Below are positions 41,717 through 47,564 of a DNA stretch of 64,000 bases, one piece after another. The DNA is from an uncultured archaeon (GTDB lineage: Archaea; Asgardarchaeota; Lokiarchaeia; Sigyniarchaeales; SOKP01): NCBI GenBank assembly GCA_964447495.1, contig CAYUTF010000002.1, positions 1 to 64,000 of the forward strand, in the 5' to 3' direction. The stretch's first letter is position 1. The number at the start of each line of letters is the position of its first letter. A model generated the notes under the pieces. That model was not told the origin of the DNA. It made no database searches and was given only the letters and a program-made list of their open reading frames with translations. The translations under genes and the position numbers were made by a program.

Positions 41717-42970
41717 TTAATTTCTAATTAGCTTTTCAATCTTGTCCACAACCTTTAGAGCACCAAAATAAGATTCTGCAAACGTGGTTCCATTATATAG
41801 TATTGTGCATAAAGGTTCATTCTTATAAATATCAAAATCAGGTGCTGATTTATCATGAACATAAGCCAATTTACTTATTTCATCTAATTTGGAGCTTTTT
41901 ATATCTTGAGAGGCAAATAAAATTAATTTTGTAGAAAAAGTATGGGTTTCAATAGTATCTAATCTCCTTAAGATAGTATTCCATTCATCTTCAGAAAAAG
42001 ATTGAATATGAAGATCCATTAAATTAATATTAAGTGCATTTTCTGACACCCTTAGAGAACCGGGGATTCTAGGATTAATTTCCATCAAATACGGATAATG
42101 ATTTTTTAATACAAAATCAAATCCATTTATCCCTTTTAATTTTAATGTTTTAGTTAGAAAAAGAGAGATTTCTGTAATTATTTCATTATCTATTTTAAGT
42201 AAATTTGCAGGTACAATATTTCCACAATAAGCAAACTGTTTAGGGGCATTTAGAAATTTTTCCCCAATTATTTGACGATTTATAGAGATAACTTTAGTAT
42301 TTACGCCATCAGAAATGATTGTGCAGCTTATAGGTAATCCTTGGATATATTCTTGAACTAACCATTCATTTGGTTGGAAGCCCTCAACTCCAAGTAGCTT
42401 CATGAGAAAGAGATATTGGTCATATGTATCTATTTTATAAATATTTATACCTCCTGAACTCTTTTTCTTTTTCAAAATTAGCGGATATTGTACATTTTGA
42501 CTCTGAAAATCAAACTCATCAGCACTTATGCTAATAGGGTATTTATAGTTATATTTTTCTAATAAATTATATAATCCGTGTATATCTCGTGCTTTTTTTA
42601 ATATTTCGATGTTGTTGTTCAAACTTTTTATGCCATATTTTTTATTCTTCAATTCTTGAAGAAATTGAGCTCTGTCATCAATGGCATCATCTAATCCACT
42701 TCCAATAACGAGATTCTCTATTTTGGGATGCCTCTCTAACATTTTTAATGCGAATTTTAATAAATACTGACTATAAGAATTTTTTAATACTTCATAATTT
42801 GCGCCAAGTTCCTTACTAATGATTAATGAATCTTTTACACAGGGAAATAAATCTACATCTCCAAAAAAATCCACAGCATATACCTTATAACCCGCTAAAT
42901 TTAAGGAAGTAGCTAATGGTCTAGTGTTAAAACCAACAACTAGTACAGAATTTTTATAATCACTCATCAA
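41717..42970 (-). CDS. ATP-grasp domain protein (COG2232-like)
   Basis: VGFNTRPLA...AVDFFGDVD, SSGG, VQEYIQG, GINGFDF, EINPR. Confidence 0.85.
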   Translation of the reverse strand: MMSDYKNSVLVVGFNTRPLATSLNLAGYKVYAVDFFGDVDLFPCVKDSLIISKELGANYEVLKNSYSQYLLKFALKMLERHPKIENLVIGSGLDDAIDDRAQFLQELKNKKYGIKSLNNNIEILKKARDIHGLYNLLEKYNYKYPISISADEFDFQSQNVQYPLILKKKKSSGGINIYKIDTYDQYLFLMKLLGVEGFQPNEWLVQEYIQGLPISCTIISDGVNTKVISINRQIIGEKFLNAPKQFAYCGNIVPANLLKIDNEIITEISLFLTKTLKLKGINGFDFVLKNHYPYLMEINPRIPGSLRVSENALNINLMDLHIQSFSEDEWNTILRRLDTIETHTFSTKLILFASQDIKSSKLDEISKLAYVHDKSAPDFDIYKNEPLCTILYNGTTFAESYFGALKVVDKIEKLIRN

Positions 42971-43009
42971 TCTAACAAATATTTCAAAAATTAAAACTTA
43001 TTTTATATG

Positions 43010-45249
43010 TTAAAGAATCTTTTTTAACTCTAAAATTAGATTTTTGGGATTGACTCTGTCAAATTGATAAATTTCTGCTTTTCCGAAATCTTTAAAATTC
43101 TCCTTTATCTTATTAGCAGCAAAAGTATTTACACCTAATCCTTGAGTGGCATAACTCTTTTTTGGTTCTAACACTACAAGATGAACCCCTTTTTTAGATA
43201 AAGCCTTTGTTAATTCTTTTAATTCATTGATAATCACATTATAATCACTTTGTACTTGGGCAATTAAATCAGGATATTTTACGGAAATGTTTGCACCACA
43301 ATCAGAACAAATAAAAATTACGGGGATTATATTTCTATTCTTTAATTTTTCTGCATTAATTAATTTAAGAGATTTCTTTAATGCTGCAGCCATTGGTGTA
43401 TATGATTTTCCTTCAATATTTTTTACTTTATTGGCAGCATTCTTGAAATAAACCGTTGGTTTTTGAAGAACAACTGCATCTTTTCCTCGAAAAATTATCA
43501 GACTTATTTTGTCCTTCTTTCGATAACCTTCTTTTTGTAAAGATAAAATTACATCTGTCATTTGCTTTATTACATAGTACATCGAAGCAGAGCTGTCTAA
43601 TACAAAAAATAAAACCAATGGTGCACGATATTCGTATATTTTGTCCATTAAATCATACTTATTGAATTTAATGGGAAAATCAATATCAGTTTGATTATAT
43701 ATTGTATTTTTCAAATAATTTCTGATAGTTGCATCTAATGCGATACTTTTGGGGTTATTAATTGGAGTTCGATATGATACGTACCTTCCTTTTTGTGAGG
43801 AAGAAATTTTGATTCTTCTTCCGATTCCTCTTCCACCATAGTTAGAAACTTTCCTTTCTTTTCGAATATTATCCAAAATCGAAGTCATTTTTTTTTCCAT
43901 TTTATAGATTAATGGGAGAGCATCGAAATCATAATCTAAAAAATCAAACAACTCCTCATTAAAGGGAATATCCTTTACTTTCCATCCTCCAGCCGGTGAA
44001 GGACTTCTTTTTTTATTATCATGATATTTTGGTGCCGGTAATTTCTGTTCTTTAGTTTCTGGTACATCAACCTTTTTTGGATCTATTGATTGCCGTTTAA
44101 ATTCTTTCTGAGGGGCATCGTCATATTTCAGAGGACCTTCTGTGTCTTTATTCGGTTTATAGGTATTAGTATCTTCATATGCTTTCTGTATTTTTCCATA
44201 TACCTCAACAATTTTAGCTTTTATCTCTTCCGGAGTCATCTCATAGTGAAGGGATTGAATACGATGTTCAAAAACTAAATCCATAGCTACATTCAAATCA
44301 TCCTCAGCAACCATCTTTCTCCCGTTAAAAGCCGCATGAGCACGGGCACATCTGATAAAGGTAATATCTGCTCTTTGAGAAAAAATACCTAATTCATTAA
44401 CAAGCCTTGATACAAACTCATACACAGTAGAAGGAATTTGAACTTCTTTCATAATTTCACGAGCATTTTTTATTTTTTTCCTTAGCATTTCCTGTTCTTC
44501 TTCATATAATTTATGAAATTCTTTTGGATTATCATCAAATTCTATAACTCGTCTTGAAATTTCTGCTCGTAATTTCGGATCACGAGGTGCTTTGATTTTA
44601 ACTTCCAAACCTAGTCTGTCAGCTATCTGTGGGCGGAGTTCCCCCTTTCCGAATCCTAATTCGCTGTGAATATAGGATCTTCGGGGTTCATACTCCCGAC
44701 CAAGATAAATCGCGAGGGATGAGATACAGAGATTCCTTCTCGTTCTATTATGTTAACACCTGATGCCGCTGAATCCAATAAAACATCTACGATGTGATCT
44801 TGTAATAGATTTATCTCATCTACGTAAAGAATTCCTCTGTGAGCTTTGGCAAGCAATCCAGGATGAAGACTGCGTATACCTTCTGTAAGTACTTTATCAA
44901 TAGACAAAGATCCGCAGACCATATCTTCCGTAACTCCTAAAGGTAAGTCAATTATGCGCATGCTACGCCTTGCCCTTTCCATTGTTCCATCCTTAAGTTT
45001 AACACGACATTCATCACATAATTCATCAATTTCTGCGTTTGGATCACACGAAAACGTACAATCTTTCACCACTTCTATTTCAGGCATCATTTCTGCCAAG
45101 CTTCTAACAGCCGTAGATTTTCCTGTTCCTTGTTGCCCAGTGAGTAATACTCCAGCAATTTGAGGGTCTATAACATTAAGAATTAGACCCATTTTCATTA
45201 TGTCTTGACCGAGTATTGCTGTAAATGGGAAACTATTCCTTTTTACCAT
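43010..45249 (-). CDS. ChlI/ChlD-type AAA+ ATPase-vWA chelatase subunit, two exons: join(45249..44679, 44646..43010), 735 aa
   Basis: Exon 1: FPFTAILGQ, GQQGTGKST, PGLLAKAHRGILYVDEINLL, RFILVGSMNPE. Exon 2 resumes with GELRPQIADRLGLEV in another frame and ends in a vWA domain (LDSSASM, YTPM). 2240 - 32 = 2208 nt = 736 codons. Confidence 0.88.
44647..44678 (-). other. Candidate 32-nt bulge-helix-bulge (BHB/BHL) mRNA intron
   Basis: RNA CC-CCGA-AG^A-UCCUA-U-AUUC-ACAGC-GAAU-UAGGA-U-UCGG-AA^A-GGGGG; CCGA:UCGG 4-bp helix; cutting after the 2nd nt of each bulge gives CCC GAA GAG GGG GAA CTC (PEEGEL). Confidence 0.82.
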
Positions 45250-45323
45250 AACTTGATGTTAAAAGTTTCATTTTTATTAAAAATTTCCCATTATAACAAA
45301 GTATTAGAGATATTATTACAAAG

Positions 45324-45719
45324 TTAGCAATTTGAATAATATTGCTTGAAGAATTTTATGATAGATAATGCTTCATAACCTTTTTTTGTTAATTCATACT
45401 TCCAAGAAATGTTTTTTTTATCAATTTTTATATAATATTCAGGGTAATCATTTCTATTAAAAAAACTGACTATCGTTCTCGGATTTTTAATATGTAGAGC
45501 ATTGGCTAAGGCCTTGCTAGTTATTGATTCACCTGATTTGGACATTTTATAAATAGTTTTTAAATATTTAACAAAATTATCACTTAATCTTTTAGGTAGT
45601 TTTAAGGGATCTTGAATTAAATTACTCTTATTTACAAATTTAAAATTTTTTTTCACCATATTTTTTTTTAAAGCTTCCCTTTGCTGATTAAAAAGTTTTC
45701 CATTTAATAAGAGTTTCAT
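45324..45719 (-). CDS. Winged-helix DNA-binding protein (DtxR/MarR-like)
   Basis: YLKTIYKM...ITSKALANALHI...YELTKKG. Confidence 0.6.
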   Translation of the reverse strand: MKLLLNGKLFNQQREALKKNMVKKNFKFVNKSNLIQDPLKLPKRLSDNFVKYLKTIYKMSKSGESITSKALANALHIKNPRTIVSFFNRNDYPEYYIKIDKKNISWKYELTKKGYEALSIIKFFKQYYSNC

Positions 45720-46613: not shown

Positions 46614-47564
46614 TTAGAATTTTTTAGAAATTTCCATTAATTTTGTGTCTAATTTGGTTACTTCTTCATCCCATTCGGATAAAATAGCCTCCACTTGGGG
46701 AATAATCTCTGTTCTTTCTTTATATTCAAGATAATCCATGAATTCTTTGATATTGGCAATTTTTATATAGGTTTCTGCTACAAACTTTCTAATTTCATGA
46801 ACTTGATTATTTAATACCTCTGGGACTCTGTGAGATTCGCCTTTTCGAACTAATGTTGTCAAATATTCTTCAGTACCAAGTAATAAAGCTTTAAATTTAG
46901 TCAATTTATCTTGTATATATTTCTCGTATGTTTCAAAGAGATTGTCCTTAGGGAAGTAATTTGTCACATCAATTATGAATTTATGAGTTTGATTTACCAG
47001 TTGCTCCATACTTTCGTATCCTTCGATGCGGTAATCTACAGTATGATAAGATGCTTCAATTCCTCGAGATGTATCATCTAAGCTGAATATTTTAAAGCCT
47101 GGATCATTTTTAAGAGGTTTTTCTGGATCTCCTTTCTTATCAGGCATTTCTACTTGACGAATTAACCTTTCAGGGTTAAAAACGAGAGTGAAATACAAAG
47201 GATTGGCCGTTTGATGAAAAGCAAGATGTCTAATATCAATATGACTTAACATCACTTTAAATCCGGGATGTGTATGCCACGCTCCAACTGTGTATAAGCC
47301 CCTTGAAAATGCTTCATCATCAATTAAAGTATATGTAATGTTATCTTCTTCTGACCATTCATATTTATCTATAACAGCATCTTTATCCAATTTTTCATGC
47401 ATAATAGGATAAGATTCTTTTATAATGATATCCTCTTCTTTTTTCTCACCAATAAAAACACCATTTACTTCTAACCACACATCTTTTGAGATTTTTTGAT
47501 TGGCAAATCGTACAGCTGCGGCCACAATCGTTAGATAAACTTTTTTTGGTATAATTACCGTCAT
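46614..47564 (-). CDS. MPN+/JAMM metalloprotease with helical C-terminus
   Basis: LEVNG (catalytic Glu) and WHTHPGFKVMLSHID (HxHx7Sx2D). Confidence 0.88.
   Translation of the reverse strand: MTVIIPKKVYLTIVAAAVRFANQKISKDVWLEVNGVFIGEKKEEDIIIKESYPIMHEKLDKDAVIDKYEWSEEDNITYTLIDDEAFSRGLYTVGAWHTHPGFKVMLSHIDIRHLAFHQTANPLYFTLVFNPERLIRQVEMPDKKGDPEKPLKNDPGFKIFSLDDTSRGIEASYHTVDYRIEGYESMEQLVNQTHKFIIDVTNYFPKDNLFETYEKYIQDKLTKFKALLLGTEEYLTTLVRKGESHRVPEVLNNQVHEIRKFVAETYIKIANIKEFMDYLEYKERTEIIPQVEAILSEWDEEVTKLDTKLMEISKKF

Follow-up and report, generated by a model that had tools for sequence, protein, structure and literature searches.

Putative bulge-helix-bulge mini-introns in a chelatase-type gene and in two further protein-coding genes of a Lokiarchaeia-type Asgard genus

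The DNA considered here, referred to as the window, is a stretch of 64,000 nucleotides (nt) from an uncultured archaeon (assembly GCA_964447495.1, contig CAYUTF010000002.1, positions 1 to 64,000 of the forward strand). On its minus strand, a gene for a fused ChlI/ChlD-type AAA+/VWA protein is broken within the conserved motif MNPE|EGELRPQ by 32 nt (44647..44678). These 32 nt very likely constitute a bulge-helix-bulge (BHB) intron in the pre-mRNA of this protein, which is removed from the mRNA. Judging from the genomes compared, this intron belongs to a group of 29-32-nt introns found in protein genes of a Promethearchaeota (Asgard) genus. Furthermore, it is probably the visible tip of a population of ~30-nt BHB mini-introns that repeatedly enter and leave protein-coding genes in this genus of Lokiarchaeia-type Asgard archaea. 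An earlier sequence-only reading of the window had already ascribed it to a probable Asgard archaeon; indeed, the closest public records are metagenome-assembled genomes (MAGs) of Promethearchaeota archaea.

The upstream open reading frame (ORF A; 44656..45249, minus strand) encodes 197 amino acids (aa) and has a C-terminal end reading ...FILVGSMNPE-DPIFTAN, followed by TAG. Downstream of the insert, GELRPQIADRLGLEV continues in a different frame of the same strand, which reads ...GKGELRPQIADRLGLEVKIK... and is open as far as 43010. Removal of 44647..44678 gives CCC GAA G|AG GGG GAA CTC, coding for PEEGEL, and a joined frame of 190 + 1 + 544 = 735 aa. The sequence-only reading had described both the break at MNPE-DPIFTAN-stop, with a frame resuming 32 nt further on, and the 735-aa product with PEEGEL; all its sequence statements hold on the minus strand, and recalculation returned the same product. 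The predicted spliced junction sequence is ...AACCCCGAAG|AGGGGGAACTCC... and the predicted junction peptide of the spliced chelatase is FILVGSMNPEEGELRPQIADR. The parts of the gene and of the motif discussed below are the following, all on the minus strand:

44679..45249, minus strand: exon 1, starting with ATG at 45249 and ending ...ATG AAC CCC GAA G; 190 residues and, of the Glu codon at the junction, the first base
44647..44678, minus strand: putative 32-nt intron AUCCUAUAUUCACAGCGAAUUAGGAUUCGGAA; an in-frame TAG (44658-44656) terminates the unspliced ORF A
43010..44646, minus strand: exon 2, starting AG GGG GAA CTC, with its stop codon at 43010-43012; 544 codons, encompassing the AAA lid and the VWA domain
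44681..44686, minus strand: 5' strand of the BHB motif, in exon 1, with the outer CC (44686-44685) and the central-helix CCGA (44684-44681); found de novo by RNAalifold
44678..44680, minus strand: 5' bulge AGA, with the predicted cut between 44679 and 44678
44654..44677, minus strand: inner intron hairpin UCCUA(U)AUUC, loop ACAGC, GAAUUAGGA, with a stem of UCCUA:UAGGA plus AUUC:GAAU
44646..44653, minus strand: unpaired U (44653), 3' strand of the central helix UCGG (44652-44649) and 3' bulge AAA (44648-44646), with the predicted cut between 44647 and 44646
44644..44645, minus strand: outer-helix GG in exon 2, partner of the CC at 44686-44685

Protein family profiles place the break within a single protein. 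Pfam searches assigned Mg_chelatase/AAA_5 to ORF A, and AAA_lid_2 and VWA to the downstream part. The NCBIfam profile TIGR02442 ('putative cobaltochelatase') was covered from position 1 to 181 by ORF A and from 182 to 625 by the downstream part, and TIGR02030 (BchI/ChlI) from 1 to 185 and from 186 to 316, respectively. Similarly, the alignment with a paralog on another contig (C1) was gapless across the junction. An intact ortholog scored 590.8 bits against TIGR02442, for which the cut-off is 779.45, and it also scored under the BchI and BchD cut-offs. The protein would thus be a relative of the ChlI/ChlD fused ATPases rather than a certified family member, with TIGR02442 as its best family match, below the cut-off.

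The RNA sequence around the break can adopt a BHB motif. The order of the elements, with outer helix, central helix, bulge and intron helix on the 5' strand and intron helix, central helix, bulge and outer helix on the 3' strand, is the topology of archaeal BHB introns. A 4-bp central helix (CCGA:UCGG) with a 3-nt 3' bulge (AAA) adjoins the exon-exon pairing CC:GG, and a further exon-exon pairing, GGAGU:ACUCC, is present as well. On the 5' side, AGA faces a single U (44653), which makes a 3x1 internal loop, a relaxed form. The third base of this bulge is A, U or G among the carriers of the intron, as expected for an unpaired base. Cutting after the second base of each bulge gives a functional junction, the product of which is identical to that of the intron-less orthologs described below. 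All pairings listed in the sequence-only reading, namely CC:GG, CCGA:UCGG, the inner stem and GGAGU:ACUCC, as well as the bulges AGA and AAA and the relaxed state of the 5' side, were recovered in the genome of this archaeon (G000). Its argument that RNA structure and protein homology designate the same junction was borne out by PEEGEL, by the abutting profile coordinates and by the intron-less orthologs. The cutting rule that it invoked for the archaeal splicing endonuclease EndA, after the second nucleotide of the bulge, is the one given in the accessible part of PMC2738675. A genome-wide scan found BHB geometry in 580,348 of ~8.9e8 (a,b) position pairs, i.e. ~6.5e-4 per pair. As a frame-restoring junction allows two equivalent registers, the chance that a given junction of this kind has BHB geometry is about 1e-3, and this applies independently to a second site, in an ABC ATPase gene, presented below.

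A joint at the predicted junction was encountered in RNA. Part of the gene was represented in 20 public sequencing runs, one of which was a metatranscriptome (X17); contigs were taken from Logan, in which rare forms are dropped. Seven X17 contigs aligned to 43000-45300. One of these, with a length of 257 nt and a depth of 3.2, aligned to 44592-44645 and 44678-44871, its joint skipping exactly 32 nt with a register ambiguity of 1 base that includes the predicted cut 44647..44678. This contig differed from the window at seven positions in 248 nt (~97% identity), indicating that it stems from a close relative. In DNA runs X2 and X3, contigs across the site retained the insert with no differences from the window. 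A third DNA run (X4) had no coverage at 44617-44880 and is uninformative there; the joined form was not seen in the three DNA runs examined, X4 being without coverage of the site. A junction product in RNA and the insert in DNA had both been proposed as checks along with the original prediction, and both were found, the former in a ~97% identical relative.

The distribution of the intron was examined in a genus set of 42 genomes, composed of G000 and 41 others that each represent a different species, 38 of which gave a match in a search with ORF A. Among 20 orthologous loci compared, five carried a 32-nt insert at the exact same site and the other 15 read uninterrupted MNPEEG[ED]LRPQ, hence were precisely intron-less. 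A covariance model of the 47-nt core retrieved a single copy in each of seven of the 42 genomes (G000, G005, G023, G008, G016, G042 and G050). In a gene tree, these seven carriers and three genomes with a different intron formed a weakly supported group of ten (69/95), and 12 intron-less genes were located on the opposite side. One gain and one loss of the chelatase intron would suffice to explain this pattern, although the gene tree is no proof of it. Regarding the exons, those of G005 and G042 display a mosaic, since exon 2 is far closer to that of G008 and G016 (pS ~0.23) than exon 1 is (pS ~0.76); this suggests recombination between lineages, with a break near the intron.

Both exons are under strong purifying selection in the carriers. 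Indeed, dN/dS between carriers was 0.04-0.12 in both exons where dS was unsaturated; carriers with saturated dS had a pS of ~0.8 and a pN of ~0.1. The first 15 codons past the junction encode ELRPQIADRLGLEVK in all six carriers compared, most of these codons differing synonymously, and the TTG located 13 codons past the junction in G000, a candidate start of a separate downstream ORF, is TTA in the other five. Because the protein is conserved directly after the junction and no start codon is, exon 2 is translated in this frame from the junction on. Only removal of the 32 nt provides for this, and the gene is alive in the carriers. The same data bear on the possibility that the insert stays in the RNA, the gene being a pseudogene or encoding two polypeptides and the X17 contig originating from an intron-less allele of a related strain. 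Such a situation would be in line with the mismatches of that contig, which mark it as coming from another strain, with the variation in intron presence between species, and with the TTG as a possible start. It is nevertheless very unlikely, as the insert has been kept at one site in seven species of which both exons are so constrained, and the stretch from the junction to the TTG has undergone only synonymous changes. Moreover, the break falls within the AAA+ module, where it is flanked by adjacent profile positions, and the BHB cutting rule predicts the exact junction. One of the conditions under which the sequence-only reading would have been abandoned, a helix and bulges that are not conserved in a decaying gene, does not describe the carriers, in which CCGA is invariant and both exons are constrained. 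Its suggestion to look for intron-less alleles and compensatory changes among orthologs was productive on both counts.

Conservation of the structure was assessed in an alignment of seven carrier sequences, six of them distinct, with 20 base pairs and thus 120 cells. Of these cells, 90.8% were paired, vs at most 58% with the partners slid. Compensatory changes occurred in two of the 20 pairs, and the covariation score was reached by five of 500 shuffles. In the inner stem, one pair changed from C:G to U:A in the group of G008, G016 and G050, and a change from U:A to U:G occurred in G023. In the exon-exon helix, U:A was replaced by C:G through synonymous changes in the third base of one Ser codon and one Glu codon. 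RNAalifold, run unguided, recovered the central helix, the 3-nt 3' bulge and CC:GG, and the cells of CCGA:UCGG and CC:GG were paired in all six distinct rows. In exon 1, the outer CC and CCGA were invariant in all seven carriers. Similarly, CCCCGAAG, which holds the central-helix bases CCC GAA, was fixed in carriers and synonymously variable in intron-less alleles.

Several observations weigh against a BHB intron as described here. Firstly, the minimum free energy (MFE) fold of the single 81-nt sequence lacks the BHB motif and pairs CCCC with GGGG (z = -1.8), and 12 of 200 shuffled sequences folded as well. In the 91-nt context, the fold constrained to the BHB motif had an energy of -26.5 vs -29.5 for the MFE fold, i.e. 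3 kcal/mol higher. Secondly, the 5' bulge is non-canonical, consisting of 3 nt that face 1 nt, or of 2 nt should an A:U pair form; RNAalifold indeed pairs A19 with the lone U, leaving 2 nt unpaired. Thirdly, the central helix and both outer CC:GG pairs are without any variation and hence give no covariation signal. The carriers are, moreover, kin, so that the compensatory changes may be single events and the counts of structural conservation provide modest evidence. Lastly, the support from RNA consists of one low-depth contig from a ~97% identical relative, not from the same strain; an intron-less allele in the X17 strain would give the same contig, and DNA of that strain was not seen. Such an allele is unlikely: as much more remote species also have the intron, the 97%-identical strain would most likely have the intron state of G000.

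The genome encodes the machinery expected for splicing of a BHB intron. Two matches with tRNA_int_endo (PF01974; 104 and 69 bits) were found in frames of 208 and 206 aa, as well as one RtcB (PF01139; 561 bits). The two EndA paralogs are located at C196:3202.. and C3:37804.., and RtcB at C15:12064... The cbf5 gene was intact, in one 349-aa frame. Asgard archaea have a broad-specificity (alpha-beta)2 EndA, which has been linked to relaxed motifs, according to the accessible part of PMC5829648. The two paralogs fit such an enzyme and would presumably represent its alpha and beta subunits. Based on the motif and the presence of these genes, EndA and RtcB would be the acting enzymes. In the proposed mechanism, the transcript would fold such that CC-CCGA of exon 1 pairs with UCGG of the intron and GG of exon 2, leaving AGA bulged on one strand of the 4-bp helix and AAA on the other, above the short intron hairpin. 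The two-subunit EndA would then cut after the second base of each bulge and RtcB would ligate the exons into ...CCC GAA G|AG GGG GAA..., restoring MNPEEGELRPQ and the 735-aa protein. The intron would probably be released, perhaps as a circle, and splicing is presumed to be efficient. In an unspliced message, translation would end at the TAG after 197 residues. As to the earlier proposal of an EndA/RtcB-spliced pre-mRNA intron, an intron whose removal is needed for the full-length ATPase is supported by the comparative data, by the two EndA genes and the RtcB gene, and by the X17 contig; the identity of the enzymes is something that we infer.

Excision by other means than EndA and RtcB, i.e. 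by another nuclease and ligase or by self-cleavage, could be advocated on account of the non-canonical 5' side and of two related sites, described below, that have only three of four central pairs and no outer helix. Such a route is highly improbable, as the cut positions obey the BHB rule at all six sites found in the genus, and a two-subunit EndA accepts relaxed motifs according to what is accessible of PMC5829648 and PMC2738675. The Rfam search returned no matches at E-values up to 1 in 44300-45000. To our knowledge, 32 nt is far below the size of any known self-splicing intron and far too short for one of group I or group II. A self-splicing element is therefore excluded, by its size together with the lack of an Rfam match.

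Short inserts in coding sequences can also be skipped by the ribosome. Translational bypass elements are known from gene 60 of phage T4 and, as byps, from the mitochondria of Magnusiomyces. Like these short, hairpin-bearing inserts, which are polymorphic between relatives, the chelatase insert is a hairpin of ~30 nt in which a stop codon closely follows the would-be take-off point, and inserts of its kind are polymorphic between species. Bypass elements, however, are retained in the mRNA and depend on a matching pair of take-off and landing codons, whereas the chelatase insert has no such pair that would give PEEGEL: direct reading of the insert revealed no GAA or GAG landing site in frame with GGG GAA CTC, and the single GAA close to the 3' end belongs to a frame that runs into a stop after seven codons. 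Programmed bypassing, with an insert that remains in the mRNA, is thus extremely improbable, the more so as an RNA contig without the 32 nt exists and the borders obey the EndA rule at six of six sites, which bypassing does not predict.

It had further been suggested that the intron, with its in-frame stop, is a switch that turns the chelatase ATPase on and off by regulated splicing, as in HAC1/XBP1. In that system, the IRE1 nuclease recognizes two stem-loops under control of stress, and ligation is performed by RtcB or Trl1. The likeness lies in a short intron that is removed without a spliceosome and changes the frame, with an RtcB-type ligase in metazoa; the difference lies in the use of IRE1 and stem-loops there, vs a BHB motif and no sign of regulation in the chelatase intron. 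Regulated splicing would be a refinement of the proposed intron rather than its exclusive rival. The unspliced message would yield a truncated 197-aa AAA+ fragment, and competition with the CCCC:GGGG fold, being 3 kcal/mol more stable than the BHB fold, could in principle gate cleavage. A switch is nonetheless improbable: the one RNA contig that spans the site has the spliced form, the intron is missing from most species of the genus, a sister group has lost it and carries another one elsewhere in the same gene, and similar introns occur in unrelated housekeeping-type genes. Such a patchy distribution over several genes fits inserts that are tolerated and constitutively removed, at least as well as it fits a switch; this part of the sequence-only reading found no support.

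The chelatase intron is not alone in its genome. A first scan of G000, for BHB geometry and joining of reading frames, yielded 8108 raw candidates and 14 groups past energy filters, only two of which proved real, namely the chelatase intron (contig C2) and one more case (contig C22). In a second scan, which ignored structure and sought two adjacent frames collinear with one paralog, 19 pairs were obtained; exactly three had an excess of 30-32 nt and zero or one residue missing in the paralog, on contigs C2 (chelatase), C22 and C52. The earlier suggestion to look for other split genes with BHB motifs was thus answered by inserts in an ABC ATPase gene (C22) and in a thiolase-like gene (C52). Inspection of the orthologs in the genus brought the number of sites beyond the first chelatase site to five, two of which are in G000:

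C22:2930-2960 (locus L036, 1131-1161), minus strand: ABC ATPase intron of 31 nt, strict hBHBh' form, within LFLDEPT|T|GVDASKRY
C52:17194-17223 (locus L152, 1195-1224), plus strand: thiolase-like gene intron of 30 nt with in-frame TAG, within FDCCA|[VM]SDG
thiolase-like gene of G015 and G057 (L176/L177): insert of 31 nt at GVEK|LMDE, with four of four central pairs and following the BHB rule
thiolase-like gene of G046 (L175): insert of 29 nt at AFRN|ASF, with four of four central pairs and following the BHB rule
chelatase gene of G015, G022, G001 and G057 (L004, L005, L006 and L146): second site, with a 30-nt insert containing an in-frame TAA, at EVYGKI|EKAYED, ~150 codons downstream; all four lack the intron at the first site

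The ABC ATPase intron was present in six of the 24 orthologous loci readable at the site, a 25th locus being incomplete. The remaining 18 were intron-less and read LFLDEPTTGVDASKRY, which equals the predicted spliced product; the predicted junction peptide ends ...LFLDEPTTGVDASK. In this intron, all 96 of 96 cells were paired, and a covariation from G:C to A:U in the exon-exon helix was synonymous (GAG..GGC vs GAA..GGT). RNAalifold missed its 4-bp central helix, preferring a 2-bp alternative. Continuity of the Pfam match was uninformative, as PF00005 ends at the junction; the question was settled by the orthologs. In the thiolase-like gene, G000, G024 and G015 carried inserts of 30, 31 and 30 nt, respectively, of differing sequence, at FDCCA|[VM]SDG, and 23 loci were intron-less there. 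The BHB motif at this site is weak in G000 and G015, with three of four central pairs and no outer helix. The second chelatase site has a relaxed BHB motif, with ACGG:CCGG (three of four pairs) and bulges AAA and A[A/C]A. For this site, an AAUU:AAUU helix with the junction after TTAC was discarded, since it puts the cuts out of register; in the CGG:CCG register, which does fit, a conserved Ile is restored. One chelatase gene thus has two intron positions, in sister groups.

In total, six sites were counted in three unrelated genes over the 42 genomes, with two in the chelatase, one in the ABC ATPase and three in the thiolase-like gene. A cut 2 nt 3' of the 4-bp helix on each strand restored the intron-less residues at all six sites, in 23 instances. 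The central pairs were mostly four of four; they were three of four at the second chelatase site and in the thiolase-like gene of G000 and G015, where the outer helix is weak or missing. The introns have a common architecture of 29-32 nt, with a hairpin whose 5-nt loop is A/U-rich, followed by the central-helix strand and then two bases. They have no common sequence, and each is single-copy in its genome. In G000, the covariance model of the chelatase intron (R1) gave only weak matches beyond the one copy (E-value of 0.39 or worse), and blastn-short searches with the three introns of G000 gave only chance matches of 12-17 nt, indicating that, in terms of sequence, these introns do not make up a repeated element. 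They often lie within the most conserved motifs, the exon halves being kept through co-varying synonymous sites.

As far as the accessible parts of PMC2738675 and of PMC5829648, with the pre-mRNA references cited in the latter, go, EndA-type introns in archaeal protein genes have been documented for one gene, cbf5, in Crenarchaeota (Watanabe 2002; Yoshinari 2006; Yokobori 2009, PMC2738675). A full-text literature search, with subscription journals and supplements outside its reach, found no paper on BHB introns in Asgard protein-coding genes. According to the accessible part of PMC2738675, the cbf5 intron is cut between the second and third bulge residues, interrupts a conserved motif of the catalytic core, has been gained and lost between related species and has been connected with a broad-specificity, hetero-oligomeric EndA, all of which resembles the chelatase intron. 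The latter differs in phylum (Promethearchaeota/Asgard vs Crenarchaeota) and in gene, and such introns, all of 29-32 nt, are found in no fewer than three genes and at no fewer than six sites in the Asgard genus. In addition, cbf5 splicing has been demonstrated by cDNA and an enzyme assay, whereas splicing of the chelatase intron rests on one metatranscriptome contig. Among Asgard archaea, a preprint on tRNA introns (October 2026) reports that introns have been gained heavily and repeatedly, in a lineage-specific manner, where a BHB motif can form, and that most genomes have two EndA paralogs. These tRNA introns share with the mini-introns the recognition motif, the presumed enzymes, the patchy presence and the use of different sites in sister groups. 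In contrast, the host RNA of the chelatase intron is a messenger, in which the exon halves of the motif are built from codons, at co-varying synonymous positions; the word mRNA occurs zero times in that preprint. The chelatase intron is an addition to the EndA-type pre-mRNA introns, previously associated with cbf5, in a lineage and a number that specialists would not expect.

Such introns have consequences for annotation and for the study of intron evolution. Genes with mini-introns are called as two fragments or as pseudogenes, and intact genes in Asgard MAGs may thus be under-counted. Furthermore, mini-introns constitute a testable system for the arrival of introns in coding sequence and the adaptation of exons to a splicing enzyme, allow a test of whether the expansion of tRNA introns in some Asgard lineages extends to mRNAs, and bear on debates over intron origins near the archaeal-eukaryotic transition. 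If a population of mini-introns indeed enters and leaves genes in this genus, the archaeal lineage closest to eukaryotes would tolerate and spread mRNA introns via the tRNA-splicing machinery, and would provide a present-day case of intron gain still under way in the coding genes of prokaryotes.

Several other candidates were rejected. Among the groups of the first scan, C17 (DUF4443 with Prok-JAB) and C19 (Peptidase_M28 with Eco57I methylase) combined different Pfam domains in the pair, and the other ten were judged by eye to be adjacent genes, their downstream parts beginning with M or belonging to unrelated families. A paralog-spanning test left 46 groups, mostly gapped at the junction, which were HdrA/MvhD-type neighbors matching a fused paralog, or repeat proteins. 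A relaxed, homology-free mini-intron scan based on a codon-usage score returned 379 candidates, mostly adjacent genes. None of the three known introns ranked among the top 60, and the scan is of no use for counting introns per genome. ARAGORN in intron mode called 56 tRNAs and assigned an intron to 15 of them, in several cases of an implausible length (670 and 807 nt), and was not relied on for introns.

Next to the chelatase gene, the window contains, all on the minus strand, genes for an ATP-grasp protein (41717..42970), for a small protein with a weak match to the N-terminal part of iron-dependent repressors (45324..45719) and for a JAB/MPN-domain protein (46614..47564); these three neighbors have no bearing on the intron. 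Elsewhere, the thiolase-like ortholog of G055 (L169) contains one in-frame TAA. In G000, in-frame TAA codons without extra bases interrupt genes at C18:30772-30777 (minus strand) and C31:29799-29801 (minus strand), close paralogs of which align through the stop (68/56% and 81% identity on its two sides). These are not introns and may represent pseudogenes, recent nonsense mutations or read-through. Finally, four HdrA-like genes have an in-frame TGA within FPTDDC[SG]I*[IV], at C5:25142-25147 (minus strand), C51:2715-2720 (plus strand), C25:16433-16438 (minus strand) and C126:4393-4401 (minus strand). A paralog on C53 is uninterrupted at the same motif (DCSACILTP), and ARAGORN calls a tRNA-SeC, the four TGA codons being probable selenocysteine codons.

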